DNA of 64,000 nucleotides, taken from NCBI GenBank assembly GCA_964389675.1, contig CAYMEV010000003.1:129109-193108 (forward strand), read 5' to 3'. The notes beneath the pieces are model-generated. The model did not search any database and was not told where the DNA came from. It saw nothing but the letters and a program-made list of their open reading frames with translations. Below are positions 19,675 to 52,798 of this stretch, piece after piece. How positions within the stretch are numbered: the stretch's first letter is position 1; each line of letters begins with the position of its first letter. A program made the position numbers and the translations under genes. The DNA is from an uncultured Candidatus Sumerlaeota bacterium. Lineage in GTDB: Bacteria; CAYMEV01.

Positions 19675-19754
19675 TATAATTAAAACCTTATGCCTTCTCT
19701 ATGGATTGAAAATTCATAAATAATCAACATATTATCTGATAAAATAAAAATTTA

Positions 19755-19791
19755 TTTTAACGATGCCGTAATATTTCATCTTTTTATATTA
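19755..19791 (+). repeat. imperfect direct repeat, right copy
   Basis: TTTTAACGATGCCGTAATATTTCATCTTTTTATATTA; 2133 bp downstream of the left copy. Confidence 0.8.
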
Positions 19792-19824
19792 GTGGATAAA
19801 TTTTTCTGTTAATGGTATTATTTA

Positions 19825-28749: not shown

Positions 28750-31700
28750 TCATTGCACTGTCTGATGCCCTTGTTGTCGGGTCATACATTATCTCAATAC
28801 TGACAGGGGGTATCAGGAACCTGCCCTTAGTCAGCGCTTTCAGCTTGTAGAAGATGGCAGTATCCATCCCCGGGTGTATATCGCCGAAGAAGCTTATCTG
28901 ATGATCCTTTATGTCTATGTGTGCCGGGTTATAGATATCCTTCGGCTTTATCCATGATGGCAGGACCTGTTCTGTGAGCCTCGGATTCTCTATTTCAAAG
29001 CCAGCTCCTATCCTGTCTGTTACAGCTGCATTTCTGAACCTGCTCTGGGCAATGATGACTATCTTTGCCCATATCTCCTGCCCCTGCTTTAGGTTCAGCA
29101 TGTCGTCCTGGTTCAGAAGGTTTCCTGCCTCGTCATAGAATACCCTTTTTATCTCTATCCCCTGGGCATATTTTGTGAACTGCACTCCCGGCTTGATGCC
29201 TTCGATGGCAAGCAATGCATAAAAAGGCCTGTCCTTTTTGTTTAATATTTTCAGGTCATGGCCTGTCAGCCCTGAGCCGAAAACTGTCCTCTGACCATGG
29301 GTAAATGATAGGATCTCCTTGCCGTCCTTATATAGATAGCCCTCAAACTGTTCATCCCCGCTTGCTTTGTTCTGCTCTAAAAGCTTTACAAAGGCTCTCA
29401 GGCTCCAGACAAGCTCCTGTGTTGAATAGTAATATACATATTTTCTGGTTCTAAGGTCCTGGACTATCTTCAGCATCAATTGATCCCTTAATTCTGTATC
29501 AGCAAACTGCCCCATATCCATAAGCACATTGAGTATTATGCCCTTCTGCCTCAGTTCGGAATAGAAGAAGAGCTGGAGCTCATTTCTGTCATTTTCGGTT
29601 AAATTGACACCTTTATTGAGGTTCAGGTCTGAAGATATCAGCTCCTTTGCCATGGAAATATTGCCAATATTTGCATATGCTCCTGCAATAAAGGCTATTG
29701 ATTCAGGAAGAAGCCTGTCCCTGTATCTCTGAAGGAAGAAATCAATGTCGTTCTGCCGGGTTTTTTTCATGAGGCTCAATACATAATATCCGTATGCCCT
29801 CGTTGATATGCTGTGAATCTTATCATCCTCAATGTTTATGGTGCCTGTTATATAGTCTGCAAGCGAGTTCAGAACTGACTGGTCAACAAGAAATCCCCTG
29901 GCATTCGCCTCATAAAGGAAATGAGTGGCATAGACAGATACCCAGCTATTGACATTCCTGGTGGATGGCCACATGCCAAATCCGCTGTCTCCTATTCTCA
30001 TTGATATCACCTTGCTGACGGCACTCAGGATAAGCTGGTTGATATCCCTGTCTTTTAGATATTCATTTATCTCCTTGACGGTATCAATATCCTTTAAGTA
30101 CAGAAGCGGAAAGGCAGTGGAGATAGTCTGTTCAAGGCATCCGTACGGGTACCTTATGAGGTACTTGAGATATCCCAGTTCTTTGGAATAGACGAGCGAA
30201 GTAAGCGTTATGAATGTCCTTTCAAACTCGGGGGCCCAGCCTTTGGTATAGCTGTCGAGGCTTGTCTCTCCCTTACTGCATTCAACAAGGTGGTATTCAG
30301 TGACAGATGGTGAATTTGGGAGGATTGGAATGGTTGTTTCTGCGGATGTTCTTTCGCCGTTGCCTTCTGCCTGGATCTTTATTTCAGAAAATCCAAGGTT
30401 GCCTTCCGGCGATGCTTTTGCAATGATTATCTTTGATTCATTATCCTTGATCGGTATCCTGCTGTCCTCAAAACTGATTATTTTTATATTTTCAGCTGAG
30501 ATATCAATACTGAACTCTCCATCCTCTCCTGTTGAATTTACCACTGTAATTGGAATCTCAAATATATCCCCTGCAAGAAGGAACCTTGGCATTGTTGAAA
30601 TAACCTGTATCTTGTCCCTGATAATTGTAAATCCCTCATAAGAGCCGAATTTTCCGTCACTGACGGCAACTGCCATTACCCTTACCTTTCCCAGGAAGTT
30701 CGGGATATCAAAAGCTATAGTGCCCTTGCCATCTTTGCTGACGGTATTGAATCCTGACCAGAATGCAAGTGGTTTTACCCTCATTATCCTTCCCCTGTCA
30801 CCTTCTTCCGGTACCGGAGGCATTTCCTCAAAATCTCCATAGCCTGTTTTCCCGGTATACAGTTCAGTGAATTCCGGCATTATCATTCCAAGTATATCAT
30901 TAAGCTTTACTCCAAGTGCTGTCTTGCTGAAAAAGAATGCATAGGGGTCCGGTGTCATGAATTTCCTTATCTGGAGTATGCCCTCATCAACTGCAAAAAC
31001 AGCTATCCTTCCTTCATTTCCCAGGTTCTTTATTTCATATTCTATCTCCAGGCTTGTATTGGGCTTTATTACCTCAGGATGGGACAATCTTACATCAAGC
31101 TTATTGTCATCATGCCTTATGGCAATATTTGCCATTCCAAGGGCTCTTAACGGAACAGAGCCGTAATTGTATTCACTGTTTATTATGAAGGCTGATACAT
31201 ATACATTATTATAATCCTTGGATTTTGGAGGCACCCTGAAATTTATTGTATTGTGCCCCTTTTTAATATCATGCCATTCTGACAGCAATACATCGTCGCT
31301 GTCAATTGTCATAAGCATTCTGCCATTGAAGGGGGAGTTCAGTACCATCTCAACCTTCTCGCCAGGGAGGGCATTTTCTTTATCAAGTGTCAGGTCTATG
31401 TAATATGGCGCTTTGTTCTTGTCTGCAGTTGTACCGTAACCCCACCACCATGGATATTTTGTGCATTCTGTAACAGACCCTGTATCCCTGTCTGTCAGGG
31501 TTATCCTGTAAGCACCCCAGTAGTTTCTGGAATTGAAATCAAATGAGAATTTTCCATTTTCAGACTTGATCGAATCCCTTTTTATCAAATTCTCTATCTC
31601 TTCAAATCGATACCTGTGCCTTCCATAGTTTGTATCGTAATAGTAGATATACCTGTGCTCTATATGGAAGACTGATATGTCTATATCCCTTTCATCTTCT

Positions 31701-36572: not shown

Positions 36573-39500
36573 TTATTTATCCATTGAAAGCTCTTTGAGC
36601 CTCTTTTTAAATTCGTACCTCGAAGTTTCCTTGAATTGATCCATATTTAACTCTTCTGCTTTGTCCCTGTATTCTGCTTTATTTGTAATTTTCCACAATT
36701 CATAGTAAATAACGGCAGTTTTTGCCTGGTCTGAGCTATTTTCCTGAAGCATCCTGATCAGGGCTTTAATATTCCCGTCTATACTATGTTTGAGAACCAG
36801 GGCGCTGAAGAGCACATCGTACCGTTCTATCTCACGGGCAATCAATATTGCTTCATCAAGCCTGTCAGGAATATCCTGCTTCCTGCCCATCAGGTGCAGC
36901 AGCTCAGAGATATGCAGTAAATAACTGCATAAATTATACTTAAAACCAATATCCCCGGCAATCCCTGCGGCTTTTTCAAAATGCTTCAGTGCTTGCTTGT
37001 AATTACCCTTCTCCATGTGGATCAGGCCGAAATTATCATGTGCCCTGCCTATCTGGTCTGTGTGCTTGATCTCCTTAGAGATTTCCATGTGCTTTATAAA
37101 ATTCAGCATTGCATTATCAGGGTCGCCCTGAGCCAGGAAAGCACTGCCGGTATTATGATAGGCATATAAAGACTCGTATTTATACCCGTTCTCATTGCAT
37201 ATTTCAAGCTGTCTCTTATAAAAATCTATAGCTTTGCCAAAATCATTCCTTTTATAGAAAAGGACGCCTATGTTCCCCAGAGCACCTGCTATCCCGCGTT
37301 TATCACCAATTTCACTGCATATTTTCATCTTTTTCGTATAGAATTCCATGGCTTTTTTGTAATTTCCCCGGTTAAAATAGATTACCCCGATATTTCCGAG
37401 TGCATAGCTGATCCCGGATTTATCTCCTATCTCCTGGCATATTTTCATCTTTTTATTATAGTACTCCATGGCCTTTCTGTAATTTCCCTGGTTGAAACAG
37501 AGGACGCCTATATTCCCGCAGGCATAACTGATGGAATTCTTATCTCCGATCTTTACAGCGATATCAAGTTTTCTTTTCTGGAAAGCAAAAGCTTTTTTAT
37601 AATTACCCTGGTCTGAATAAATGTTTGCAATGAGGCCGTAGGCTATGCTCATCATCCCCATGTCTCCCAGTGCCCTGCTGCAGTCAAGGTGCTTTTTGTA
37701 CCACTCCATGGCATTATCGTATTCACCCCTGTAATAGCATATATTGCCAAGGTTATTATAGACTGAATTTAACTCTGCCCTGTTACCTGTCTCCGTGGCA
37801 ATCTTGAGTTTTTTTAGCTGGTAATCCTTGGCTCTGCTGTAATCTCCTAGATTTATGAATACTGCTCCCAGATTGCCGGTTGCCCTTCCAATGCCTGTAT
37901 AATCATCAATGGACCTGTAGATATTGAGGCTTCTCTCATAATATTTCTGAGCCTCTTTATAATTGCACTGGTGCAGGTAAGCTGTCCCTATGTTTTCGTA
38001 GGATATTGCTGACCCTTTTTTATTATCAGTCATTTTGCATATCTCAAGGTTCTTTGAATGGTAAATTATGGCTTTGGTGTAGTTTCCCTGAAGGTTGTGG
38101 GCATACCCGATATTGCTGAAGGCTGTTCCCAGGCCGTTTAAATATCCGGAATCATCGGCAATTTTCAGAGACCTGCCTAAAAGCTTCCTCGCTTCCCTGA
38201 TCCTGCCTTTTTTTATCATGGTCTCAGCTATGGCATTCATACAGTCGACAGAAGTTTTTGTTTTCCGGTTTTTTTCTGAAAGGCTGAGTGCCTTTTTCAG
38301 TGTCCTGACAGCCTCATTCCACATTCCGGCGGACTGCATGATAATCCCTGTCCTTATGAGTATGTCAATTCTTTTATCAATATCATCATTGAGATAATCA
38401 AGGAGTTTCTTATAGAAGAATACGGCTTTCTCATTGTGATAATTGCCGGCTGATTTCCTGCCGGCAAGTTCAAGGAAAATAACGGCTTTTTGCCTGTTTT
38501 CCGCTTTATCATAATGCTGAGCAAGCTCTTCATAATGCTCTGGCAGATTGCCTGCGCGGACTTCCTCAATAATACTGCCTGCAAGGCCGTGAAGCCTTCT
38601 TAACCTCTCCTTCAGCTGTATTTCATATACTGCATCCCTTATGAGGGCATGCCTGAATATGCATCTGAGCTCAGAGGCCTTGCTCCATATATGTTCCTTC
38701 TGGCCCTTCTTAATTTTTTCAGAAAAATCCATTTCGCTCTCATTGAGCTTTACTGCAGAAAGAAGCCTTTCAAGGACTTTGAGCCCGAACTCCCTTCCAA
38801 GTACGGATGCTGTCTTTATGGTCTCTTTAAGCTCTGCTGAAAGCCTGTCTATACGGGCAAGTATTATCTGGCTGACCTTTGAGGGAATCCTGGTGTTTTC
38901 CCTTTTGAGCCTGTAATTACTGCCGAGCAGTTTATTTTCCGCAAGGTACATTATTATCTGTTCTGCAAAGAACGGAATACCCTCGCTCTTCTTCCAGACA
39001 AATTCGACAGTTGAATCATCTGCCTTTTCAGTTACCAGTTTTTTTAAAAGGAGCTGCCGGATATGCTCCCTGCTGAACACGCCGAGCCTTATCCTCTCAG
39101 TTCTTATGGGAAGGCTTCTGTGAATGTCCGGGATATTCACACCATCATTATCCCTGCATACGGCTGTAACTGCAACAGGGTAATTTTCAGCTGAAATCAG
39201 GAGGGACCTTAGCAAAAAAAGACTGTCATTATCTGCCCATTGCGCATCTTCAAGGACTATTAGAATAGGCTTTATTGATGCAGCCGTTTTAAAAAACCTG
39301 ATGACAGCAAAGACCGTGTTATCATAGCGCCCCTTGGCATCAAGCCGGAGGCTTATCTGATCACTGTAATCAAGGCCGATCATCGCACCGATCAATGGCC
39401 GGCAGTCCTCAATGCTGTCATTAGTATCATCTCTGAATTTATTTTCCAGAAACTCATCGAAAGCCCTTTCAAAACGGTCCCTGTTCTGATTTTCTGAATA

Positions 39501-41015
39501 TGATTCACTCTGGTTAAAAAAGGCCCTGAAAAAATGAATAAAAGGGTTGAAAGGCTTTTTTAATATCTCATCGCAGGGGAGATAGAATACATTACAGCCC
39601 CGGATATTATCTGTAAAATTTTCAATGAGGGCTGTCTTGCCAATACCTGCAGGGCCTGTTATATATATAAGGCCTGCCTGACTGCCTTTGAAAACAGGTT
39701 TTAAGAACTTTGCCAGCTCTGCAGTTTCATCCTGCCTGCCTATAAACTTTCCTTTAAAGAAGCCTGCAGTTCCAAATGCCTGCTTTGATCTCAGGCTGAA
39801 AACATCAGTCTTTTGCTTAAAGCCCTTAAAGAGCCTTGACCCTTCCGGCTCAGCGTCAAAATATGCAGGCAGTTCGGCTGCAAAGGATCTGTCAGCTGAT
39901 ATCCCCATCCAGGATGTATCCATCATGATCCTTGAGGAAAGATTGACAACATTTCCAAATGCTGTATATTCCTGCCTGATATCTGAACCTATAAAACCAG
40001 CAAAGGCAATGCCTGATGAAAGGCCGGCCCTGAAGGCAAATCCTCTGATCTTCCTCAGGCTAAGCGCAAAATCAGCAGCCCGCTGATAAAGCCTGTCCAT
40101 TGCTTTCGGAGCACCGAAGAGCACAAGGATCGTACCACCCTTGTCGCCGAAATCTATACGGTTAAAGTACCCGCCAAATATCCTGCAGTTTCTGATTACC
40201 TGTGCCAGGGCTTTCAGATAGCATCCCTTCTCCTTGAAATTAATAAAGCAGGAAACAATATCCCTGAATTCCCCCCTGTCTCTCAGTTCAAAAACAGGTT
40301 CCGGAATAAACTGAGATTCAGCCTGGCGAGGGACAGCGATTCTTTTTATTTTTCTGCGGCCGGGTATTCTTAAAGAAGCTGGAGATAACCTGTACCAGTG
40401 ATCTCCAATACTGCTTTTATCAATACTTGCTGATAATTTAGCCATAAAAAGGCTGTCAGCGATGATCTGCATTTCTTTGGCCTGATGCTCAGCTGATGCG
40501 CAGTTATCTACAGCCTCACCCCTGAAGAAGTAAGCCTTCTGGATCCCTGCATCAATTATCCTGAAGAAAACATTTCCAGAGGACAGGCCTATTTTTGCTG
40601 ACAACCTGAATTTGCCGAACCTGGTGATGGTTTTCGTTTTTTTTCTGAAAAGAGAGTTGATTGAAAAAGCTGCATTAAGGACATGCTCTGCCTTTCTCAC
40701 CCTGAATATTGCCGTGAATGCGTCCCCTGCAAAGGATGAAATAAATCCGCCATTTTCATATACAGCCTCAATGGATGGTGCAAAAAATCCATTTATTATT
40801 GAAGAAAGGACCTCTGCACCCTCTTTTCCATGTTTCATGAGATCTTGAGTCATTGCAGTAAAGCCTGATATGTCTATGAACATTGTAAAAGCTGATATTC
40901 TGCCTTTTATGCGGTTTCGGGAGAGATTCTCAGCAATGAAACCCGGGACCAGGTTGAGAGATGACCTGTATCCCTCGTTTTTCTCATGGGGAAAAGTCTT
41001 CTTTTTATCACTCAT
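36573..41015 (-). CDS. tandem class III cyclase - STAND ATPase - TPR protein, second paralogue
   Basis: FIDISGFT...FAGDA; FNRIDFGDKGG...YTAFGNVVNLSSRI; GPAGIGKT, LIVLEDAQW; long 40-aa TPR array. Confidence 0.9.
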   Translation of the reverse strand: MSDKKKTFPHEKNEGYRSSLNLVPGFIAENLSRNRIKGRISAFTMFIDISGFTAMTQDLMKHGKEGAEVLSSIINGFFAPSIEAVYENGGFISSFAGDAFTAIFRVRKAEHVLNAAFSINSLFRKKTKTITRFGKFRLSAKIGLSSGNVFFRIIDAGIQKAYFFRGEAVDNCASAEHQAKEMQIIADSLFMAKLSASIDKSSIGDHWYRLSPASLRIPGRRKIKRIAVPRQAESQFIPEPVFELRDRGEFRDIVSCFINFKEKGCYLKALAQVIRNCRIFGGYFNRIDFGDKGGTILVLFGAPKAMDRLYQRAADFALSLRKIRGFAFRAGLSSGIAFAGFIGSDIRQEYTAFGNVVNLSSRIMMDTSWMGISADRSFAAELPAYFDAEPEGSRLFKGFKQKTDVFSLRSKQAFGTAGFFKGKFIGRQDETAELAKFLKPVFKGSQAGLIYITGPAGIGKTALIENFTDNIRGCNVFYLPCDEILKKPFNPFIHFFRAFFNQSESYSENQNRDRFERAFDEFLENKFRDDTNDSIEDCRPLIGAMIGLDYSDQISLRLDAKGRYDNTVFAVIRFFKTAASIKPILIVLEDAQWADNDSLFLLRSLLISAENYPVAVTAVCRDNDGVNIPDIHRSLPIRTERIRLGVFSREHIRQLLLKKLVTEKADDSTVEFVWKKSEGIPFFAEQIIMYLAENKLLGSNYRLKRENTRIPSKVSQIILARIDRLSAELKETIKTASVLGREFGLKVLERLLSAVKLNESEMDFSEKIKKGQKEHIWSKASELRCIFRHALIRDAVYEIQLKERLRRLHGLAGSIIEEVRAGNLPEHYEELAQHYDKAENRQKAVIFLELAGRKSAGNYHNEKAVFFYKKLLDYLNDDIDKRIDILIRTGIIMQSAGMWNEAVRTLKKALSLSEKNRKTKTSVDCMNAIAETMIKKGRIREARKLLGRSLKIADDSGYLNGLGTAFSNIGYAHNLQGNYTKAIIYHSKNLEICKMTDNKKGSAISYENIGTAYLHQCNYKEAQKYYERSLNIYRSIDDYTGIGRATGNLGAVFINLGDYSRAKDYQLKKLKIATETGNRAELNSVYNNLGNICYYRGEYDNAMEWYKKHLDCSRALGDMGMMSIAYGLIANIYSDQGNYKKAFAFQKRKLDIAVKIGDKNSISYACGNIGVLCFNQGNYRKAMEYYNKKMKICQEIGDKSGISYALGNIGVIYFNRGNYKKAMEFYTKKMKICSEIGDKRGIAGALGNIGVLFYKRNDFGKAIDFYKRQLEICNENGYKYESLYAYHNTGSAFLAQGDPDNAMLNFIKHMEISKEIKHTDQIGRAHDNFGLIHMEKGNYKQALKHFEKAAGIAGDIGFKYNLCSYLLHISELLHLMGRKQDIPDRLDEAILIAREIERYDVLFSALVLKHSIDGNIKALIRMLQENSSDQAKTAVIYYELWKITNKAEYRDKAEELNMDQFKETSRYEFKKRLKELSMDK

Positions 41016-43105: not shown

Positions 43106-44341
43106 ATGAATACAGAACAGAAAAAGAAAGAAATTTTAGGATTCTTTGAAAAAAACAGGGAAAACCTCAAACGAAAACTGATAAGCCTTCTTGGAGAAAT
43201 GGTTGCTCAGAAGACTATAAATGTTGTTTCAGAAAAGATGCCTGAATTTCCCTTCCTTAAGCACAGGGGTGAAGAGTACAGGGTCGGAGATATTGCAGTA
43301 AGAGAGCTTGAGAAGCTCGGGATAAGGTATGAGGTGTTCGGGAAGCAGAAGGAGAGGCCTAATATAATTACGCATTATGGAAGTAATATTAAGGAAAAGA
43401 GGCTTTTTATAGCATCCCATATGGATATAGTACCTCCCGGTGATGGATGGGATACTGATCCGTTTGAAATGAAGGTTGAAGGCAATAAGGCGACAGGAAG
43501 GGGAGTGCTTGACAATAAAGGACCGCTTGTAAGCTCTATTATTGCACTTGAGATCCTCAAAAGCGTTATAAAAGAAGATGATATAGAGGGGGATTTTCAG
43601 GTAGCTTTCCTGTCTGATGAAGAAGCGCATGAGGAAGTAGATTACGGTATCGGCTACCTTCTTGAGGATAAGCTGATAAACCCCACCTATGCCATCATAC
43701 CTGATATCGGGGGCAATATGCTTGAGATCGACATAGCTGAAAAGGGGAGGGTAGTTGCAAAGGTAATAGCAAAGGGAAAGCAGGCGCATGGTTCAACACC
43801 TGAAAGGGGAGATAATGCAATTAACAGAATGGGCAGATACCTCTCAGCCCTTGAGAAATACACATTAAAGCATGGAGATGATCCTATTTTGGGCGATCCT
43901 ACGATAAATGTCGGCGAAATAAGAGGAGGTTCTGCTCCGAATATTGTCCCGTCTGTCTGTGAAGCAATACTCGATATAAGGCTTGTCAGGGATATGACCC
44001 CTGAAAAGATAAAAGAGGAATTGCAGGGGATCCTTCCTGATGAGAAGGATAAGATAGAAATTATAATCAAAGGTGGAACATACCCGCACAGCATATCACC
44101 TGACAATGAGCTTGTAAAATCTGTTATTGAAAACAGCAGGAAATATTTCAAAAAGGATCCCAAACCGTTCGGGAGCGGAGGGGGCACCTATGCAAAGAAG
44201 CTTAATATGTGCGGGATCAAGGCCATAGGTTTCGGGCCCGGTGATGACAATGCCTTTCATATGGCCAATGAATATGTTGAAATTGACCAGCTCCTGGATT
44301 TTAGCGTGCTGATATGCCTGATAGCCCTGGACCTGATCTAA
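43106..44341 (+). CDS. M20 family metallopeptidase/amidohydrolase (ArgE/DapE-like)
   Basis: SHMDIVP, GRGVLDNKG, SDEE, AHGSTPERGDNAI, FHMANEYV. Confidence 0.9.
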   Translation: MNTEQKKKEILGFFEKNRENLKRKLISLLGEMVAQKTINVVSEKMPEFPFLKHRGEEYRVGDIAVRELEKLGIRYEVFGKQKERPNIITHYGSNIKEKRLFIASHMDIVPPGDGWDTDPFEMKVEGNKATGRGVLDNKGPLVSSIIALEILKSVIKEDDIEGDFQVAFLSDEEAHEEVDYGIGYLLEDKLINPTYAIIPDIGGNMLEIDIAEKGRVVAKVIAKGKQAHGSTPERGDNAINRMGRYLSALEKYTLKHGDDPILGDPTINVGEIRGGSAPNIVPSVCEAILDIRLVRDMTPEKIKEELQGILPDEKDKIEIIIKGGTYPHSISPDNELVKSVIENSRKYFKKDPKPFGSGGGTYAKKLNMCGIKAIGFGPGDDNAFHMANEYVEIDQLLDFSVLICLIALDLI

Positions 44342-44772
44342 ATGACAAGGAATTTGGAAGACTCCTGTTCGAGTGGGAGATTCATCCTGCCGGAAGAAAT
44401 AAAAAGAAGCTGGCCCTGCTGTGCATCGTGTCCGGGGTCTTTCTGATGTTTCTGATAGAGGTTACAAAAAGCTTTATAATAACATATCTTATACTGCTTA
44501 TATATTTATTTACATTGAAGTCTTTTATATTTAAAACCTACTATAGGCTTTATGAAAAGGGCCTTTGTACTGTACAGCTTGGTTTTAACGACAGGAGGAG
44601 CTACAGCAGTTTCATCTCAGTTTTCCGCAGTGATGATTCCCTGCTGTTGTCCTCTGTCAGGAAATATTCTTTTATAGCAAAAACCAGGGGAATTGAGCTG
44701 GTTTTTGAGGATCCGGGACTGAAAAAAAGGGTTGCGGATTTTCTGGAGGGGAAGATTGCAGAGGATCACTGA
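44314..44772 (+). CDS. hypothetical 2-TM membrane protein with small C-terminal beta domain
   Basis: Two hydrophobic segments then YRLYEKGL, reminiscent of bacterial PH-like proteins; overlaps both neighbours. Confidence 0.6.
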   Translation: MPDSPGPDLNDKEFGRLLFEWEIHPAGRNKKKLALLCIVSGVFLMFLIEVTKSFIITYLILLIYLFTLKSFIFKTYYRLYEKGLCTVQLGFNDRRSYSSFISVFRSDDSLLLSSVRKYSFIAKTRGIELVFEDPGLKKRVADFLEGKIAEDH

Positions 44773-45031
44773 GGAAGAAAGAGAGCTTGTCGACAGGATT
44801 GCTCAGAAGATTTATGAGAGGCGTATGTCTGTACCTGCCATATTATTCCTTGAGATGTCAAAACCCCTGTGCTTCGTAGGGTCATCACTGATAGCATTCC
44901 TTGAGCCTGTTCTGCAGAGCATTATTCCATACCGGGATGTTGAAAAGTTCAGAAGCTTTATTGAAAAGAGGGAGAATGTAGAATATCTCATCGAGCAGAT
45001 AGAAAAGAAGGATATTAAAGAGGAAAAATAA
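44756..45031 (+). CDS. small conserved-looking hypothetical protein
   Basis: TTG start at 44756 preceded by SD GGAGGGG; PAILFLEMSKPL...ENVEYLI. Confidence 0.7.
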   Translation: MQRITEEERELVDRIAQKIYERRMSVPAILFLEMSKPLCFVGSSLIAFLEPVLQSIIPYRDVEKFRSFIEKRENVEYLIEQIEKKDIKEEK

Positions 45032-45062
45032 ATTAATATTAAAATAATCTGGAGGTCGTTTT

Positions 45063-46895
45063 GTGGATACCAAATTACCGGAAAAGATTAATTCAATCCT
45101 TGCAACGGATTGCGGGAGCACCACGACAAAAGCCATCCTGATAGAAAAAAAGGGAGATGAATACAGGCTTATTGTCAGGGGGGAAGCTCCTACCACAGTT
45201 GAAGCTCCTGCTGAGGATGTCACCAAGGGTGTTCTGAATGCTGTGAAAGAGGTAGAAGAGCTTGCCGGAAGAAAGATCCTTAATGGAGACAAGATAATTA
45301 CGCCTATGAAGGACGGAGAAGGGGTCGACATCTATATTTCCACCTCTTCTGCAGGAGGAGGCCTGCAGATGATGGTGGCCGGGGTTGTAAAGAACATGAC
45401 CGCTGAGAGTGCGGCAAGGGCTGCCCTGGGAGCCGGTGCTATCGTTATGGATACTATTGCTTCAAATGACAGGAGGCTGCCCTATGAGCAGATCGAGAGG
45501 ATAAGGCATCTAAGGCCGGACATGATACTGCTTTCAGGCGGGATCGACGGTGGGACGATCAAGCATGTCGTTGACCTGGGAGAAAGGATCAGGGCCGCGA
45601 ATCCCAAGCCGAGGCTGGGAATAGGCTTCAAACTGCCGGTTATATATGCAGGTAATAAAGATGCGGTTGAGGAGATCGAACATCTCCTGAGGGATATTAC
45701 TTCCCTTGATGTAGTGCCAAATATAAGGCCGAAGCTGGAATTTGAAAACCTGCTTCCTGCAAGGGAGAAAATACATGACCTTTTTATGGAGCATGTTATG
45801 GCTCAAGCGCCTGGATATGACAAGCTCATGACATGGACGGATGTTCCCATCATGCCTACTCCGGGTGCGGTGGGCCTTATTATACAGACTATTGCCGAAC
45901 TGCAGAAGATACAGGCAGTAGGTGTCGATATAGGAGGTGCAACAACTGATGTCTTCAGTGTATTTCAGAACACATTCAACAGGACTGTAAGCGCAAACCT
46001 CGGTATGAGCTATTCAATATCAAATGTTTTTGCGGAAGCAGGGCTTGAAAATGTAATGAGATGGGTGCCTTTCAATATCAAGGAGAGCGAACTTCGAAAC
46101 AGGATCAAGAATAAGATGATAAGGCCAACCACTATTCCTCAGATGATGGAAGAGCTTGTGCTGGAGCAGGCTGTAGCAAAGGAAGCGCTGAGGCTTGCTT
46201 TCATTCAGCATAAGGAATTTGCAGTTGGCCTGAAAGGTGTGCAAAAGCAGAGGACAATATCCGATGCATTTGACCAGAAGCTTTCCGGTGAAACACTTGT
46301 GGATATGATGGAGCTGGACCTTCTTGTAGGATCAGGGGGAGTCCTGTCGCATGCGCCGAGAAGGCACCAGTCAGCTCTTATGCTGATCGACGCTTTCCTG
46401 CCGGAAGGAATTACCATGCTTGCTGTTGATTCCATTTTCATGATGCCTCAGCTCGGGGTACTTTCAACTGTCCATAAGGTTGCCGCTATGGAGGTCTTTA
46501 ACAAGGACTGCATGATCAAGCTTGGTTCATGTGTTGCCCCGGTCGGCAATGCAAAAAGGGAGGGGATTGAGATCCTTGAAGTAGAGCTTGAAATGCCAGG
46601 AGGGGAGAAAAAGGAATTCAATCTGAAGTACGGGGAGATGAAGCTTATCCCCCTTGGAGTTGATGAAAAAGCAAAAGTTATTCTTAAACCGCTAAAGGGG
46701 TTTGATATCGGTGAGGGAAAGAACAAGAAGAAAGAGGCATATGTTGAAGGCGGTGTTGTCGGTGTTATCTTTGACGGAAGAGGGAGGAACCCGTTGAATA
46801 TTCCTTCCGATGAGTCTGAAAGAGTAAGAAAGCTATTAGAATGGATCGAAGAACTGAGGGTCTACCCCCGGGATAAGATCCAGAATCTGTATTAA
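45063..46895 (+). CDS. GlmL/MutL (glutamate mutase accessory)-family ASKHA/actin-fold ATPase
   Basis: Phosphate-1 TDCGSTTTK, SSAGGGL, LLSGGIDGG, MPTPGAV, phosphate-2 VDIGGATTDV, adenosine loop GSGGVLSH; GTG start with SD GGAGG. Confidence 0.85.
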   Translation: MDTKLPEKINSILATDCGSTTTKAILIEKKGDEYRLIVRGEAPTTVEAPAEDVTKGVLNAVKEVEELAGRKILNGDKIITPMKDGEGVDIYISTSSAGGGLQMMVAGVVKNMTAESAARAALGAGAIVMDTIASNDRRLPYEQIERIRHLRPDMILLSGGIDGGTIKHVVDLGERIRAANPKPRLGIGFKLPVIYAGNKDAVEEIEHLLRDITSLDVVPNIRPKLEFENLLPAREKIHDLFMEHVMAQAPGYDKLMTWTDVPIMPTPGAVGLIIQTIAELQKIQAVGVDIGGATTDVFSVFQNTFNRTVSANLGMSYSISNVFAEAGLENVMRWVPFNIKESELRNRIKNKMIRPTTIPQMMEELVLEQAVAKEALRLAFIQHKEFAVGLKGVQKQRTISDAFDQKLSGETLVDMMELDLLVGSGGVLSHAPRRHQSALMLIDAFLPEGITMLAVDSIFMMPQLGVLSTVHKVAAMEVFNKDCMIKLGSCVAPVGNAKREGIEILEVELEMPGGEKKEFNLKYGEMKLIPLGVDEKAKVILKPLKGFDIGEGKNKKKEAYVEGGVVGVIFDGRGRNPLNIPSDESERVRKLLEWIEELRVYPRDKIQNLY

Positions 46896-46908
46896 CAGGA
46901 GGAGAAAG

Positions 46909-48033
46909 ATGGGAGAAGCATATACACCCGGACTGAAAGTCACGGGGATGACCATAGTAAAGAAAGAAAGAAGACTTCCCTTGCTGGGCGATGTCCTGCC
47001 TGCAAAAGGAGAACCGGTGAAGGCTGAAGATATTGTTGCAAGAACGGAACTGCCTGGCCCTATAACTCCGGTCAATGTTGCTAATGTGCTTTCATGCCTT
47101 CCTGAAGATATTCCCAATCTTTTATGTAAAAAAGCCGGCGATAAAGTTGCAAAGGGCGAGACCATAGCCTCACTGAAGACATTTTTCGGCCTGTTCACAT
47201 CTCTCTGCAAGGCCCCTACAGGAGGCACAATAGAGGATATATCCAAGACTACAGGACAGGTTTATATCAGGGGTAATTCCATCCCTGTAGAGATCAGGGC
47301 ATATATTGACGGTGAAGTCATTGATGTTCTGGAAAAAGAGGGTGTAATAATTCAGACAGAAGGCGCATTTATCCAGGGCATATTTGGAATCGGGCCGGAA
47401 ACCATAGGAGAAATAGATGTTATTGTAGAAAGCCCTGATGATATACTTACTGAGGACATGCTGCATGAAAGGCATGAAGGAAAGATCGTTGTCGGCGGAA
47501 GCCTGGTTACATATGAAGCATTGAAAAAGGCTGTGGACCTGAAAGTCAATGCAATTATAGTTGGAGGCTTCAATGACAAGGACCTCAGGGAATTTCTCGG
47601 TTACGACCTTGGTGTAGCGATCACAGGCAAGGAAGATAAAGGAATAACACTTGTCATAACTGAAGGCTTCGGCAAGATCAATATTGCAAAGAAGACATTC
47701 GACCTGCTTGTTGCCAACCAGGGCAATAAAGCATCCGTAAACGGCGCAACCCAGATCAGGGCAGGGGTAATAAGGCCTGAGATCATAATTCCGAAGAAAT
47801 ACGAAAAGAAAGAGGATATTGATGGTGCTGTATCTGAGGGGCTTGTCCATGGGACTCAGGTCAGAATGATAAGGGAGCCTTATTTCGGGTTTTTGGGGAA
47901 AATTAAGGAAATGCCCGTAAAACTTAAGATGATGGAGTCTGAAACAATGGTGAGGACTGTAATAGTCACCCTTGATGATACAGGCGAAGATGTACTTGTT
48001 CCAAGAGCAAACGTAGAGATAATAGAGACATGA
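46909..48033 (+). CDS. conserved hypothetical soluble protein (barrel-sandwich-hybrid repeats, C-terminal KOW/SH3-like)
   Basis: KGEPVKAEDIVA and AGDKVAKGETIA...KAPTGGTI (biotinyl/lipoyl-like); IQGIFGIG, ITEGFG; GTQVRMIREPYFG...VPRANVEII; SD AGGAGG. Confidence 0.75.
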   Translation: MGEAYTPGLKVTGMTIVKKERRLPLLGDVLPAKGEPVKAEDIVARTELPGPITPVNVANVLSCLPEDIPNLLCKKAGDKVAKGETIASLKTFFGLFTSLCKAPTGGTIEDISKTTGQVYIRGNSIPVEIRAYIDGEVIDVLEKEGVIIQTEGAFIQGIFGIGPETIGEIDVIVESPDDILTEDMLHERHEGKIVVGGSLVTYEALKKAVDLKVNAIIVGGFNDKDLREFLGYDLGVAITGKEDKGITLVITEGFGKINIAKKTFDLLVANQGNKASVNGATQIRAGVIRPEIIIPKKYEKKEDIDGAVSEGLVHGTQVRMIREPYFGFLGKIKEMPVKLKMMESETMVRTVIVTLDDTGEDVLVPRANVEIIET

Positions 48034-48067
48034 TTGATATTAAAATTAAAAATATAGGAGAAAAGAT

Positions 48068-49324
48068 ATGAGAAAAAGGATACTCCTTTTCATTTTGCTG
48101 ATGATCTGTATTTCTTTTATCCATGCTTATTCTCAGGAGAATTCCGGAGATGGTGAGGCAGTAATGCCGGAGGATAATGAGGCTGTCAGCCTCAAGCCTC
48201 TCAGCATTGTGGTGCCAGGCCCCGTTGATGTAAGGGCAGTGGATCATCCGAATGACAATGGCAAGGCCCTTATAGTGCAATGGGACCATTCGCCATTGCA
48301 GAAAGAAGGCAAAATTCTGCTTTACCGGATCTACAGGTCAGAAAAAAGGACAGGGCCCTTTGCGGAGATATCCACTGTCCCTGCACTGGAGAATGAATTT
48401 GTGGATTCAACGGTCTATCCCGACAATCCTTTCTACTACAAGGTAATAGCAGAGGATAAAAAGGGAAACCATTCACGTATGGACATATTTGCCTCAGAAG
48501 GAATTGCAACTGCGCAGTTCTTTCACAGTGGAAGGCTGAACATGCTTATAATACTTGCAGTCCTGTGTTTTTTCATCCTTTACAGCATCAATCAGGCAAA
48601 AAAGAACCCCTATGGATATATAAGGCCTATTGCAGGACTGGCAGCTGTTGAAGAAGCGATAGGCAGGGCTACGGAAATGGGAAAGCCTACCCTGTATGTA
48701 TCAGGCATAATGGATATGGATGATGTTCAGACGATCGCAGGCATAACCATCCTCGGCCAGGTTGCAAAGATGTGTGCGGAATATGATACTCCCATACTGG
48801 TGCCTACCTGCAGGAGCGTAGTCATGTCAACATCACAGGAGGTTGTAAGGGAGGCTTACCTGAAGGCAGGCAGGCCCGATGCATTCAATCAGGACAGGAT
48901 CTGGTACATGACAGATGACCAGTTTGGTTTTGCTGCAGGTGTTGACGGCCTCATAATAAGGGAAAAGCCCGCTGCTGTATTCCTTCTCGGGAGGTTCTAT
49001 GCTGAATCCCTTATCCTTGCTGAGACAGGAAATTTTGTCGGTGCGATACAGATAGCAGGAACTGCAGAAGCAAGCCAGCTTCCGTTCTTTGTCACAGCCT
49101 GCGACTATACTCTGATAGGGGAAGAGCTATTTGCCGCGAGTGCCTACCTTTCAAGGGATCCCATGTCAGTTGGAAGCCTGAAGGGCCAGGACTGGGGAAA
49201 GGCGGTCATTATTGCAGTGCTTGCACTTGGATTCATCTTCTCGATCGTATCTTATTTCAGGCAGGATATGGGTATGTCTTTTGACATCTTTGAAGCCTTC
49301 AAAAATCTATTCAAGGTGGTATAG
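48068..49324 (+). CDS. FN3 + DUF6754-like membrane protein
   Basis: Signal peptide; FN3 (IVQWDHS..YRIYRS..YYKVIA); TM; IRPIAGLAAVEEAIGRATEMGKP, FYAESLIL, LIGEELFAASAYL; C-terminal TM. Confidence 0.75.
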   Translation: MRKRILLFILLMICISFIHAYSQENSGDGEAVMPEDNEAVSLKPLSIVVPGPVDVRAVDHPNDNGKALIVQWDHSPLQKEGKILLYRIYRSEKRTGPFAEISTVPALENEFVDSTVYPDNPFYYKVIAEDKKGNHSRMDIFASEGIATAQFFHSGRLNMLIILAVLCFFILYSINQAKKNPYGYIRPIAGLAAVEEAIGRATEMGKPTLYVSGIMDMDDVQTIAGITILGQVAKMCAEYDTPILVPTCRSVVMSTSQEVVREAYLKAGRPDAFNQDRIWYMTDDQFGFAAGVDGLIIREKPAAVFLLGRFYAESLILAETGNFVGAIQIAGTAEASQLPFFVTACDYTLIGEELFAASAYLSRDPMSVGSLKGQDWGKAVIIAVLALGFIFSIVSYFRQDMGMSFDIFEAFKNLFKVV

Positions 49325-49326
49325 CT

Positions 49327-50283
49327 ATGAAGTACAGAATTCCAGTTTTGATTACTATGATAACGGGCATTATTATGGTCATAAAAGAATTCATTCCCCA
49401 CAATCCCTTTGACAGAATGGATGATATACTGCAGGACTGGTATATGATCGTAGCATCATTTGCCATCATTCTCGGAGTGGAAAGCCTTCTCCATGTCCAT
49501 GCCATGAAGATCTCATTCAAGAGGAAGGACTGGCAGTATTCAGTGGTCCTTATAGTGACTCTTTTCCTGATGGCATTCTGCGGGCTTTTCGGGGGTATAG
49601 AGGATAAAGAATTTTATAATCTGAAAGACGAACAGGACATTAATACTGTGCTTAATATGGACATTCAGCTTGCGGACGGCACTGTTAAGATAAGCAGCCT
49701 GATCCCGGAAGGAACGGCTGATAAGGGAAAATTCATGTATGAAAACCAGGGCAGTATTATGCTTGATATAATAAATGAAAAGAATGTATCAGCAGTCCAC
49801 CCTGAAAGGGGATATAAAATTCCGGCCCAGTACCAGGAGAAAAAGAACCAGAGCCTTCAGAAGACGCTTAAAGACCAGCAGATATTCCTGCACAGGGGGG
49901 GGCTGAAATATGCATGGATCTTCTATCTCTACGGAGGTTTCCAGTTCAGTTACAGATTCATCTATACTGCCCTGGGAAGCACCATGTTCAGCATCCTTGC
50001 TTTTTTTGTCGCATCTGCCGCCTACAGGGCTTTCAAGGCAAGGACATTTGAAGCGACCCTCCTTCTGCTTTCAGCCTTTATTGTTATGCTGGGGAGAGTG
50101 ACATTCGGTGAAATGATAGCTGATATTACATCCATCAATATCCCCTTTATAACCGAGTGGCTTATTGATTATCCGAATACAGCCGGTCAGAAGGCTATCA
50201 TGATAGGCATTGCGCTCGGGATCATCTCAACATCCCTGAGAGTTATCCTTGGCATAGAAAAATCCTACCTTGGTAGGGATTAA
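49327..50283 (+). CDS. hypothetical multi-pass membrane protein
   Basis: About 6 TM segments with a ~110 aa soluble insert; STMFSILAFFVASAAYRAF, PNTAGQKAIMIGIALG. Confidence 0.8.
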   Translation: MKYRIPVLITMITGIIMVIKEFIPHNPFDRMDDILQDWYMIVASFAIILGVESLLHVHAMKISFKRKDWQYSVVLIVTLFLMAFCGLFGGIEDKEFYNLKDEQDINTVLNMDIQLADGTVKISSLIPEGTADKGKFMYENQGSIMLDIINEKNVSAVHPERGYKIPAQYQEKKNQSLQKTLKDQQIFLHRGGLKYAWIFYLYGGFQFSYRFIYTALGSTMFSILAFFVASAAYRAFKARTFEATLLLLSAFIVMLGRVTFGEMIADITSINIPFITEWLIDYPNTAGQKAIMIGIALGIISTSLRVILGIEKSYLGRD

Positions 50284-50293
50284 GGAGGTTTAT

Positions 50294-51157
50294 ATGGATA
50301 TTTTAGAAAAGATTAAGAACCTTGACAGAAGGATAATTTTCCTGATCATATTCCTGGCTGTAGCTGTTCCGATTTTAGTCCCTATAGGCCTGCCTGTAAA
50401 GCCCTCTCCCATTGTTCAGAAAGGTTATGACGCAGTTGAGGCACTTGATGAGGGATCGGTCGTGCTGGTATCCTTTGATTATGACCCGTCAGCTGAACCT
50501 GAGCTGTATCCGATGAGTGTTGCAGTGGTCAAGCACCTTATGAAGAAAAGGACAAAAATAATTACAATGGCTTTATGGCCTGCCGGTGCAAAGCTTGCAG
50601 AGGATACACTCAAAGAGTCCGTTGCCTATATGGAAGCAGAGGAAAAATATACCCCTGTATACGGTGAAGATTATGCCAATATAGGATTTATGGCAGGAGG
50701 CCTTATTGTTATGACCTCAATAGGCAAGTCGCTTCCGAGAACATTTCCCGCGGATTTCTATAAGACCCCTGTTGAATCGCTTCCCATTATGAAGGGTGTT
50801 GAGAACTATTCAAATATTGATATGGTCATTACCCTTTCTGCAGGAGACCCCGGTGTCCCATACTGGGTCATGGTTGCGGCAACAAGCTATGGTAAGAGCC
50901 TGATAGGCGGATGCACAGCTGTTTCAGCGCCTCAGCTTTATCCCTATGTCCAGTCAGGCCAGCTTACATCTCTTATCGGAGGGCTAAAAGGGGCAGCTGA
51001 ATATGAAACCCTGGCCAGTGTTCCTGCAAAAGCCACAAAGGGCATGGATTCTCAGTCGATTGCTCACCTTATGATAGTAATAATGATAATTATCGGAAAT
51101 ATTACTTTCTTTGTTGAAAAACAGAGACTGAAAAAACTAAAGAAGAAAATAAGGTAA
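50294..51157 (+). CDS. hypothetical membrane-anchored alpha/beta-domain protein
   Basis: ATG 50294 with SD TAAGGAGGT; N-terminal TM, FDYDPSAEPEL, GGLKGAAEYE, C-terminal TM and a Lys-rich tail. Confidence 0.8.
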   Translation: MDILEKIKNLDRRIIFLIIFLAVAVPILVPIGLPVKPSPIVQKGYDAVEALDEGSVVLVSFDYDPSAEPELYPMSVAVVKHLMKKRTKIITMALWPAGAKLAEDTLKESVAYMEAEEKYTPVYGEDYANIGFMAGGLIVMTSIGKSLPRTFPADFYKTPVESLPIMKGVENYSNIDMVITLSAGDPGVPYWVMVAATSYGKSLIGGCTAVSAPQLYPYVQSGQLTSLIGGLKGAAEYETLASVPAKATKGMDSQSIAHLMIVIMIIIGNITFFVEKQRLKKLKKKIR

Positions 51158-51170
51158 AGGGAGGCAGATA

Positions 51171-51884
51171 ATGGAAGCAGTAGGTATTTGGTTAGCGGCT
51201 TTTTTGACACTTTGCATATTCAGCTTTTTATATAAAGACAATCCCTTCTATAAGTTTGCAGAACACTGCTTTGTGGGTGTATCTGCCGGGTTCTGGATGG
51301 CTACCTATTATCATAATACCATAGACCCCAAGCTACTGAAGCCAATAGGGGATTTTATCTGGGAGCTTTCTAACAGCAATGTGAAGGTACTGGCAAAAAT
51401 AAACAATGAGCAGGTGGAGATCCAGGGGATAAGCCCCACATATTACTCCATCCTTCTGATCATCCCCCTTGTCTTTTCCATAATGCTTCTTATGAGGATC
51501 ATTCCAAGGTTTTCATGGATGAGCAGAATGGGCATATCGCTTATGGTCGGTACAGGAGCGGGCCTTTATATTATAAATTACCTCAAATCAAATGTGGTAA
51601 GCCAGATATACAGCGCAATCGTCCCGATATTCAGCAACAGCAATGTAGGCTGGTGGGTTATCATAGGTAATTTTACACTCCTTTTCGGAACGCTTTTCGG
51701 CCTTCTTTACTTCTTTTTCTCCAAGGCTCATAAAGGTGCTTTCGGACTGGGTGCCAAGATAGGTATCTATTTCATAATGATATCCTTCGGTGTATCATTC
51801 GGCTATACAGTTATGGCAAGGGTCAGCCTTCTCATAGGCAGGCTTGATTTTCTTATAAACACCTGGCTTGGAGGGATAATATAA
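51171..51884 (+). CDS. hypothetical multi-pass membrane protein
   Basis: SD GGGAGG; about 6 TM segments; SFLYKDNPFYKFAEH, FGYTVMAR. Confidence 0.8.
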   Translation: MEAVGIWLAAFLTLCIFSFLYKDNPFYKFAEHCFVGVSAGFWMATYYHNTIDPKLLKPIGDFIWELSNSNVKVLAKINNEQVEIQGISPTYYSILLIIPLVFSIMLLMRIIPRFSWMSRMGISLMVGTGAGLYIINYLKSNVVSQIYSAIVPIFSNSNVGWWVIIGNFTLLFGTLFGLLYFFFSKAHKGAFGLGAKIGIYFIMISFGVSFGYTVMARVSLLIGRLDFLINTWLGGII

Positions 51885-51889
51885 CTTTC

Positions 51890-52798
51890 ATGCCGGACCT
51901 GAGCACTGAGATATGCGGTATAAGGCTTGATAATCCATTGATACTGGCATCAGGCATACTGGGGGTCAACAGGGGATGCCTGAAGCGGGTTGAAATGGAG
52001 GGGGCTGGTGCAGTTACAATAAAGAGCATAAGCGTTGAGACCAGATCAGGCCATAACAGCCCGATAATTGTGCCATTTGATGGTGGTATGCTGAATGCTG
52101 TGGGCTATTCCAATCCGGGGCTGGAGGAAGCATACAGTGTTTTCAAGGGCCATGATGTCAATATCCCTGTATTTGCCAGTATTATAGGCCAGAAACCTGA
52201 TGATTTTGCAAAGATCATTGAGAGATTTGAAGATATTGAATTCTGCGGGTATGAGATCCCTGTCTCATGCCCGCATACACCAGGATTCGGGACTATGGGG
52301 GGGCAGGACAGCCCTGATTTTATAAGGTCGGTCCTGAAGAGAATAAAGGAAATAACCTCAAGGCCGGTATTTGTGAAGATACCCCCGATTGACAGAAATA
52401 TAGGGGATTATGGCAGAATGATAGAGGATGCGGGGGCATCGGGGATCACAGCTGTCAATACAGCAGGCCCGGGTATGATAATTGATATAGAATCCAGAAG
52501 GCCCTTCCTGGGATTTAAGAAGGGGGGGCTGAGCGGCCCTGCTCTCAGGCCTATAGCTGTAAGGTGTGTTTATGAGCTTTATGAAGCGGTCAAAATACCC
52601 GTTATAGGCACAGGAGGGATCACCACAGGTGAGGATGCTGTTGAAATGATAATGGCCGGTGCAAGTGCCCTGGGTATCGGCACAGCAGTATATTTCAGGG
52701 GATTGAACGCCTTTTCCAAGATCAGGGCGGAGATCCAGGACTGGCTTTCCAGGCATGAAATAAGCGATATAAGTGCTATCAAAGGCACCGCTCATTAA
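51890..52798 (+). CDS. pyrD: dihydroorotate dehydrogenase, class 1 catalytic subunit
   Basis: LASG, TIKS, MLNAVGYSNPG, SCPH, AVNT, GGLSG, IGTGGI. Confidence 0.85.
   Translation: MPDLSTEICGIRLDNPLILASGILGVNRGCLKRVEMEGAGAVTIKSISVETRSGHNSPIIVPFDGGMLNAVGYSNPGLEEAYSVFKGHDVNIPVFASIIGQKPDDFAKIIERFEDIEFCGYEIPVSCPHTPGFGTMGGQDSPDFIRSVLKRIKEITSRPVFVKIPPIDRNIGDYGRMIEDAGASGITAVNTAGPGMIIDIESRRPFLGFKKGGLSGPALRPIAVRCVYELYEAVKIPVIGTGGITTGEDAVEMIMAGASALGIGTAVYFRGLNAFSKIRAEIQDWLSRHEISDISAIKGTAH

Follow-up and report, generated by a model that had tools for sequence, protein, structure and literature searches.

The MutL/GlmL family of ASKHA ATPases has one described member, GlmL/MutL, which is termed a chaperone that reactivates glutamate mutase (PMC4682846). 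In a 64,000-nucleotide stretch of the genome of an uncultured Candidatus Sumerlaeota bacterium (contig CAYMEV010000003.1, positions 129,109 to 193,108 of the forward strand; hereafter the window), an ATPase of this family is encoded within a run of eight co-directional genes, g1 to g8, together with a soluble partner and a set of membrane proteins. The system to which these genes belong is real, widespread, and undescribed. Judging from the sequences, it comprises two modules: module A (g5 to g8), a putative four-subunit membrane complex with variable periplasmic parts and one strongly conserved cytoplasmic DUF6754 domain, and module B, a predicted cytoplasmic ASKHA ATPase of a distinct MutL/GlmL clade (g3) accompanied by g4, g1, and g2. 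The reading that we favor, and to which we give an even chance, is that the two modules are linked parts of a machine, undescribed so far, in the inner membrane of diderm bacteria, in which the ATPase-g4 pair drives or gates module A.

Gene Organization in the Window

The eight open reading frames (ORFs) lie within positions 44314-51884 of the window on a single strand, where the original prediction, made from the sequence alone, had placed them. They are listed below, with lengths in amino acids (aa) and transmembrane helices abbreviated as TM.

44314-44772, + strand: g1, small membrane protein of 152 aa, about 2 TM, hydrophobic stretch at residues 33-72
44756-45031, + strand: g2, about 91 aa, TTG start, one weakly hydrophobic segment
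45063-46895, + strand: g3, the ASKHA ATPase, 610 aa, GTG start, MutL/GlmL family PF13941
46909-48033, + strand: g4, soluble protein of 374 aa, no TM
48068-49324, + strand: g5, 418 aa, signal peptide and 2 TM, DUF6754
49327-50283, + strand: g6, polytopic protein of 318 aa, about 6 TM
50294-51157, + strand: g7, 2 TM around a periplasmic domain, ATG start
51171-51884, + strand: g8, polytopic protein of 237 aa, about 5 TM

The spacing proved to be as tight as proposed, with overlaps of at most 41 nt and gaps of at most 34 nt, and GGAGG-like sites of the Shine-Dalgarno type were found upstream of seven of the eight starts, g1 being the one without. The longest frame of g2 begins at TTG 44732 (99 aa), and the likelier start is TTG 44756 behind a GGAGGGG site; similarly, the longest frame of g7 begins at TTG 50270 (295 aa), with a likelier start at ATG 50294 behind an AGGAGG site. 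The start of g1 overlaps the 3′ end of a gene encoding an M20 hydrolase by 28 nt. A hydropathy scan agreed with the earlier division into membrane and soluble proteins, predicting no TM helix for the ATPase and, in total, about 14-15 TM helices for module A. Pfam families could be named for only two of the eight proteins, MutL (PF13941) for the ATPase and DUF6754 (PF20539) for g5; no Pfam family was assigned to the other six (g1, g2, g4, g6, g7, g8), for which NCBIfam was silent too. Since conserved homologues of each of the eight ORFs exist in other genomes, all eight stand beyond chance.

The Orphan ATPase of the GlmL Family

The ATPase matched the full Pfam MutL model (PF13941, positions 1-450 of 450) over residues 12-483 with 422.2 bits against a cut-off of 27 (E 3e-126), and the expected DCGSTTTK, DIGGATTD, and GSGG motifs are present in the 610 aa protein. 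It shares this Pfam family, the ASKHA fold class, and the phosphate-1, phosphate-2, and adenosine motifs with GlmL/MutL and Or-4. In contrast, it scored under half of the equivalog cut-offs of both, with 222.6 bits against 475 for GlmL (NCBIfam NF040745) and 208.6 bits against 600 for Or-4 (NF040744), and it also remained below the cut-off of glmL_fam (TIGR01319; 163.7 bits against 204.05). Compared with GlmL and Or-4, it shows far higher conservation, exceeds the length of their models by 150 aa, bears at its C-terminus an additional domain of about 125 aa, and is found outside a mutase context, its partners being g4 and membrane proteins. All 15 orthologues match the three GlmL-type models, the best E-values being 4.5e-72, 3.6e-68, and 1.7e-53.

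Conservation within the clade is high. The identity of the ATPase to 14 orthologues from different phyla (603-678 aa) is 61-74%, and the nucleotide motifs DCGSTTTK, DIGGATTD, and SGG are invariant in 15/15 sequences; for this reason, the ATPase looks active. Cys17, Cys483, and Cys490 are likewise invariant in all 15. The C-terminal extension (residues 484-610, about 125 aa) is specific to the clade and common to all orthologues, and an invariant DCx6C motif is found at it. Homologues of the ATPase make up at least 8000 clusters at 90% identity, and a sequence search of the PDB returned no relative at E<=1.

The gene for GlmL was described between glmS and glmE, which encode the B12-binding and catalytic mutase subunits, and no such linkage was observed here. 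As had been proposed, no mutase or B12-binding domain was detected among the 36 larger ORFs of the window (17 + 19, of about 90 aa or more), and none was found among the flank-family representatives scanned at the 28 ATPase-bearing loci of the survey described below. These scans covered 29, 16, 46, and 76 proteins, the 76 being taken from 89 representatives of which the other 13 had been scanned earlier. With scores below three GlmL-type cut-offs and no mutase in the scanned window ORFs or neighbors, the description of the ATPase as an orphan of the GlmL family holds. Public records label the orthologues "glutamate mutase L", "methylaspartate mutase", or, at JGI, "TIGR01319 family", names that are transferred by homology. 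As far as sequence and gene context indicate, the ATPase is not the vitamin-B12 enzyme helper named in databases.

DdrAB and EutA are ASKHA reactivases, and DdrB works by subunit mimicry. Together with hydantoinase/oxoprolinase A they belong to the same ATPase superfamily, and they are two-protein systems like ATPase-g4; our ATPase showed weak Pfam matches to Hydantoinase_A and Hydant_A_N (E 3e-5 and 6e-5). In contrast to DdrAB and EutA, it had no DDR or EutA Pfam match at E<=0.01, and no partner enzyme was recognized.

The Partner Protein g4

The ATPase and g4 genes are adjacent, or one gene apart, in the ORF maps, and natural ATPase::g4 fusions with PF13941 in front were identified in two of the 150 listed representatives (P0132, 995 aa; P0217, 1003 aa), which supports the idea that the two act as one unit. 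The g4 family is also strongly conserved, with a mean column identity of 66% over 16 sequences, and large, with at least 8000 clusters at 90% identity and, among representatives at 50% clustering, 3464 with E<=1e-3 and 1039 with E<=1e-30.

In the AlphaFold2 (AF2) model of g4 (pLDDT, the predicted local distance difference test, 82.8), the N-terminal half is rich in beta structure and contains a barrel-sandwich-hybrid domain; a small alpha/beta domain follows, and the C-terminus forms a KOW-like barrel. The barrel superposed on the KOW domain of Spt5/NusG with a root-mean-square deviation of 1.3-1.6 Å over about 60 columns in Foldseek, where all matches were at the domain level (best whole-chain TM-score 0.15-0.20), and a sequence profile search of the PDB gave a best E of 0.1. 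For RnfC_N, the window copy scored 17 bits, under the cut-off of 25.6, and the relative P0243 scored 37 bits, above it; relatives also match biotin-lipoyl-like barrel-sandwich domains, and the homologue P0338 has a precomputed NQRA match. RnfC and NqrA are peripheral cytoplasmic subunits of membrane complexes. Their N-terminal barrel-sandwich-hybrid domain resembles g4 in this domain only, and in contrast to Rnf and Na+-NQR, to which the locus does not belong, no flavin or Fe-S domains and no homologues of RnfD/A/E/G or NqrB-F were found.

We discarded a biotin/lipoyl carrier role for g4, in which the candidate lysine lacks conservation, and mimicry of the g5 domain by g4 was dropped as hhalign showed no homology between the two. 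A predicted complex of g4 with residues 176-378 of g5 scored 0.00 (mark 0.32), a value that weighs neither way on binding. Roughly 11 of the 150 listed representatives, P0170, P0179, and P0243 among them, form a g4 variant class of about 450 aa with an extra N-terminal barrel-sandwich/biotin-lipoyl-like segment.

Distribution and Arrangement of the Two Modules

The DUF6754 (g5) alignment was used for a profile scan of species-representative genomes, which gave at least 600 pattern matches and at least 584 confirmed relatives. The best 80 of these at least 584 loci were analyzed with flanks of up to 10 kb; locus counts were obtained by tblastn with the window proteins, and the antisense artefact families of the ORF maps (F4 and f12, in loci of high guanine-cytosine (GC) content) were ignored. 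The 80 loci span at least 10 named phyla, mostly uncultured. The named carriers are WOR-3, Stahlbacteria, Zixibacteriota, Ignavibacteria, Fermentibacterota/Aegiribacteria, Cloacimonadota, Coatesbacteria, Edwardsbacteria, Eisenbacteria, Gemmatimonadota, Poribacteria, Planctomycetota, Acidobacteriota, "Deltaproteobacteria" metagenome-assembled genomes (MAGs), and one Bacillota MAG.

The order g5-g6-g7-g8 on the same strand was kept in 102 of the 118 g5 copies in these loci, which defines module A as a fixed four-gene unit. Thirteen copies are truncated by the end of the locus, and the remaining 3 of 118 are exceptions, namely two third copies with one inserted ORF and a lone fusion gene (locus L025). 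The ATPase or g4 was present in 28/80 loci, and 35/80 were too short to judge. The loci bearing the ATPase or g4 belong to at least six named phyla (Zixibacteriota, Ignavibacteria, Fermentibacterota/Aegiribacteria, Planctomycetota, Acidobacteriota, and Coatesbacteria) and show three layouts. In the first, g1-g2-ATPase-g4 is located immediately upstream of module A and co-directional with it, as in the window (Fermentibacterota, Planctomycetota, Acidobacteriota, and some Zixibacteriota and Ignavibacteria). The second, found in other Zixibacteriota and Ignavibacteria, has ATPase-f17-g4 divergent from module A, f17 being an exported protein (250 aa) anchored at its C-terminus. The third places g2-ATPase-g4 between two copies of module A (L009, L011, L068). 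The pairing thus outlasts rearrangement in at least six phyla while all other neighbors change, which is good evidence for a functional link between the two modules.

Profile hidden Markov models located g2 in 16 loci, in 15 of them directly upstream of the ATPase and in the other (L054) directly upstream of g5, and g1 in 11 loci, always directly upstream of g2. In L054, g1-g2 stands immediately before g5 in a locus that has no ATPase; g2 therefore bridges modules A and B. The survey thereby bore out the expectation that these genes co-occur across unrelated phyla with no mutase among the neighbors scanned, and the linkage in 28/80 loci upholds the proposal that an orphan GlmL-type ATPase is tied to a multi-subunit membrane complex.

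The Membrane Proteins of Module A

The DUF6754 and fibronectin type III (FN3) assignments proposed for the 418 aa protein g5 were both confirmed, the former by a full-length Pfam match (PF20539; 389.3 bits against a cut-off of 27, E 8e-117) and the latter by a PDB profile search, in which the FN3 domain was the only part of g5 with relatives. Homologues of g5 make up at least 8000 clusters, and those listed are all unnamed or "hypothetical". The AF2 model, built on a 45-sequence alignment (pLDDT 83.6), shows a signal helix, the FN3 domain at residues 53-130, a TM helix at 154-179, a six-stranded alternating alpha/beta domain at 189-362 (Rossmann-like, the DUF6754 core), and then a long TM helix at 365-399. 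The alpha/beta domain is probably cytoplasmic, because positive residues follow the first TM helix and FN3 and S49 domains are periplasmic in nature. FN3 proteins dominated the Foldseek matches of g5, which also included low TM-score matches to the HAD-like LNS2 domain of Nir2. The idea of a HAD-type DxD catalytic motif was given up, since the 45-sequence alignment shows no conservation of D216 and D218, and no cofactor-binding motif was recognized in g5.

The window copy of g6 contains an insert of about 100 aa, its relatives being about 215 aa long. In g7, a conserved cytoplasmic N-terminal DRR is followed by a TM helix, a roughly 220 aa domain whose location must be periplasmic, a second TM helix, and a basic tail. 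Relaxed scans of 25 g7, 23 g6, and 22 g8 members gave no consistent Pfam match, only scattered weak ones, commonest among them DUF7521 in 7/23 and TMD0_ABC in 6/23 for g6, which were rejected as low-complexity TM matches. No PDB relative below E 0.2 was found for g6, g7, or g8, the comparison of g7 with named Atlas clusters gave a best score of 0.75 and no named look-alike, and hhalign detected no internal homology between g7 and g5 or between g6 and g8.

At many loci of Zixibacteriota and Ignavibacteria, the g5-g8 set is present in full two or three times in tandem beside one ATPase module. In a quick maximum-likelihood tree (IQ-TREE) of 106 g5 C-terminal regions, the first, second, and third copies formed separate clades common to different loci, so the tandem copies appear as old, position-specific paralogues; the long L025 branch in this tree is an artefact of the S49 domain included in that sequence. 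Across ten three-copy loci, the mean identity between paralogues of the same locus was 0.60 for the g5 cytoplasmic domain, 0.33 for FN3, and 0.38 for the g7 periplasmic domain. Module A is thus constant on the inside and variable on the outside.

The g5 ectodomain can, moreover, be exchanged. It is missing in a clade of third copies (267-305 aa), and in a g5 homologue from a Bacillota-labelled MAG (L075:8309-10771, +) an N-terminal PQQ_2/BamB-like beta-propeller replaces FN3; an ABC ATPase gene lies just upstream of this homologue (7596-8288). A sub-threshold fn3 match (E 5e-4) well upstream of the DUF6754 core in L057 may represent an additional FN3 domain. The lone DUF6754 paralogue in L025 (9959-12346, +) carries a Peptidase_S49 (SppA/NfeD-like) periplasmic domain after its last TM helix and has no g6-g8 nearby. 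The Zixibacteriota chromosome that bears this fusion (CP070824.1) also has a complete module at L027.

Genomic Neighborhood

The neighboring ftcD and M20 genes had been taken as a hint to an amino-acid, peptide, or folate-linked substrate. This suggestion was not sustained, as M20 was near the module in 0/80 loci and ftcD in 3/80 by tblastn, the FTCD_N domain being confirmed in L079. Downstream of the locus, pyrD (class 1 dihydroorotate dehydrogenase; window 51890-52798, +) begins 5 nt past g8 and looks co-transcribed. By tblastn, pyrD was near the module in 0/80 loci, and the flanks of the window cluster are not conserved.

Altogether, 323 flanking families were identified within 5 kb of the module. 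The commonest were MotA/ExbB/TolQ (10 loci), ExbD/TolR (7), and SDR (7), followed by the glycine-cleavage P protein (5) and the TonB-dependent receptor (5 within 5 kb, 8 overall). In WOR-3 and Fermentibacterota, ExbB-ExbD(-ExbD)-TonB and a TonB-dependent receptor are situated downstream of module A. In two other loci (L021:419-3591, -; L078:1-3073, -), tolQ-tolR-TonB_2/TolA-like-tolB follows directly downstream of ATPase-f17-g4 on the same strand. Additionally, bactofilin genes adjoin the module in L009 and L011, and in L046 a gene encoding a peptidoglycan-binding M15 peptidase is located between g2 and the ATPase.

Proposed Function and Alternative Explanations

If the two modules form one inner-membrane machine, the ATPase-g4 pair would dock on module A from the cytoplasm, the probable site being the DUF6754 domain or a contact through g1/g2. 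Its ATP cycle would drive or gate a conformational change, relayed via the TM bundle to the periplasmic domains, and these would handle a cargo or partner, either in substrate uptake over the inner membrane or in mechanical work on an envelope component. Up to three paralogous membrane modules, differing chiefly on the periplasmic side, would draw on one ATPase module. For the uptake variant, the substrates would perhaps be those imported by TonB-dependent receptors; for the mechanical variant, the periplasmic work would be linked to Tol-Pal.

Several known machines offer functional analogies only. A cytoplasmic ATPase combined with membrane subunits that have large periplasmic domains would find its counterpart in FtsEX, LolCDE, and MacB, and one energizer serving several specific modules in the ECF transporters and TonB-ExbBD. 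Unlike ABC and other P-loop transporters, the eight proteins contain no P-loop/ABC_tran domain and no recognized permease family, which sets the locus outside that group. In relation to Tol-Pal and Ton, no MotA/ExbB/TolQ or ExbD/TolR subunit is encoded inside the window cluster, such genes being only neighbors elsewhere. PilM-PilN and FtsA may also be compared, as an ASKHA protein beside bitopic membrane proteins with short conserved cytoplasmic N-termini (here the DRR of g7); in contrast, these belong to a different ASKHA family, and the cluster contains no pilus or division genes. The cluster maps to no described complex. For these families there is no solved structure by sequence search and no functional name, and no relevant paper was found in a literature search that covered few subscription journals.

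A number of observations weigh against a machine in which ATPase-g4 drives or gates module A. Neither the ATPase nor g4 was found in 17/80 loci with at least 7 kb on both sides, including all fully flanked WOR-3 loci (L001, L004) and all four Poribacteria loci (L047, L056, L067, L073). Adjacency of module B is therefore not obligatory; module A may function on its own, or the genes of module B may lie at another site in the genome. The original prediction of a single eight-gene operon consequently stands for the gene set and the tight layout and falls for the obligate unit, which gives way to two modules with facultative adjacency. Furthermore, g5 was the seed of the survey, which is therefore silent on the ATPase and g4 where they occur without g5, and the loci analyzed are the best 80 of a total of at least 584. 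Neighbors of the Tol/Ton type are limited to 10/80 loci, and most other neighbors are housekeeping genes of unrelated function (rpsF, ssb, rplI, pth, obg, dksA, prfA, prmC, ndk, plsX-fabH-fabD, bactofilin). Rfam matched nothing in the window, and no regulatory RNA hinting at a substrate emerged there or in the 7/80 loci also scanned. Finally, none of the known families of transporters, motors, or mechanotransducers was found to resemble g5-g8.

A more far-reaching version of the proposed machine, which we regard as tentative and on the doubtful side, is a new class of primary-active machine with an ASKHA ATPase and a barrel-sandwich/KOW adaptor as energizer instead of a P-loop ATPase. The energizer would be shared by up to three paralogous membrane complexes, each of four subunits from protein families without known relatives, and the machine would be a housekeeping one in many diderm phyla (Zixibacteriota, WOR-3, Fermentibacterota, Cloacimonadota, Ignavibacteria, Planctomycetota, Acidobacteriota, Poribacteria, and others) that is absent from model organisms.

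A serious rival to driving or gating is a chaperone/reactivase-like role, which we consider unlikely. ATPase-g4 would then, by analogy with GlmL/MutL, DdrAB, and EutA, be a maintenance factor assembling or reactivating the DUF6754 domain, and module A would run on other energy, such as the proton-motive force. The only described member of the ATPase family is termed a glutamate mutase-reactivating chaperone (PMC4682846); yet the cross-phylum identity of 61-74% would be unusually high for an accessory factor. Such a role would explain module A standing without a nearby module B, as in those 17/80 loci, and it fits one B module beside up to three A modules. The conservation of the g5 cytoplasmic domain, which exceeds that of every other part of module A, also agrees with it; the lack of a recognized cofactor-binding motif in this protein does not, and g4 is unrelated to g5 by hhalign, unlike the subunit mimicry of DdrB.

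The second rival, to which we also assign a low probability, is an envelope or division machine tied to Tol-Pal rather than a transporter. In this case, the motion of the ATPase would be passed to domains acting on peptidoglycan, lipoproteins, or the outer membrane, and the machine would resemble FtsEX, LolCDE, and MacB with an ASKHA in place of the ABC ATPase. The tolQRA-like-tolB genes directly downstream of ATPase-f17-g4 point in this direction, as do the bactofilin genes and the M15 peptidase gene, although Tol genes are adjacent in just 2 loci and the other 8 pair ExbB/ExbD with TonB and TonB-dependent receptors, an association that points to uptake. Periplasmic work would suit the TM-periplasmic-TM layout of g7, the swappable g5 ectodomains including the S49 peptidase, and the housekeeping gene context. 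Three ancient paralogous copies per genome are, by comparison, more typical of substrate-specific systems.

It is improbable that the modules are functionally unrelated and became neighbors only through the shared ancestry of a housekeeping gene neighborhood. Module B is not near module A in 17/80 loci, and both sit amid conserved housekeeping genes (rpsF-ssb-rplI, pth, obg, glycine cleavage), but the pairing is kept across three arrangements and both orientations in at least six phyla with other neighbors changing, and g2 adjoins either module. The strong Pfam MutL match and the public names "glutamate mutase L" and "methylaspartate mutase" would make the ATPase a genuine GlmL that reactivates a B12-dependent glutamate or ornithine mutase whose gene lies at some other place in the genome; this is highly improbable given its scores below the GlmL, Or-4, and glmL_fam cut-offs, its 150 aa of additional length over the models, the lack of a mutase or B12 domain in the 36 window ORFs and the scanned flanks of 28 loci, and its constant partners g4 and g2.

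The scale of the system is considerable, as the g5, g4, and ATPase families each comprise at least 8000 clusters at 90% identity, and g5 occurs in at least 584 places in species-representative genomes. Because the ATPase is conserved on the scale of core machinery (61-74% across phyla), the system would represent an important function missing from textbook bacteria. Should the ATPase indeed energize the membrane complex, ATP would be coupled to membrane work by a new route; otherwise, g4, g2, and the DUF6754 protein would still be the first defined partners for the poorly understood MutL/GlmL family. Either way, the analysis corrects the "glutamate mutase L" mislabel, which feeds false calls of glutamate fermentation in metabolic reconstructions of uncultured phyla.

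Other Observations

Among the surveyed loci, Rfam reported a partial small-subunit (SSU) match in L001 and, in a Planctomycetota MAG, a cobalamin riboswitch (L064:19527-19756, +; 96 bits) about 6 kb downstream of the module, to which it is probably unrelated.

Several other genes in the window were recorded. A bacterial alpha-2-macroglobulin (1833 aa) is encoded directly upstream of a PBP1C-type protein with Transgly, Transpeptidase, and BiPBP_C domains (26443-34234, -), which we take to be the known A2M-PBP1c pairing. Two large proteins (6040-10053, +; 36573-41015, -) combine an adenylate/guanylate cyclase, an AAA_16 STAND-type ATPase, and long TPR arrays. At the edge of the window, HEAT repeats precede an ATP-dependent PEP carboxykinase in one open frame that runs off the window start (2-2173, +) and may be a fusion or two genes. 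A Peptidase C10 (streptopain-like) protein with a Spi/I69 inhibitor prodomain and two DUF5648 repeats is encoded at 15906-17465 (-). Finally, the GC content drops to 0.319 at positions 18001-20000, compared with about 0.42 elsewhere, around a methyltransferase gene located at 18343-19674.

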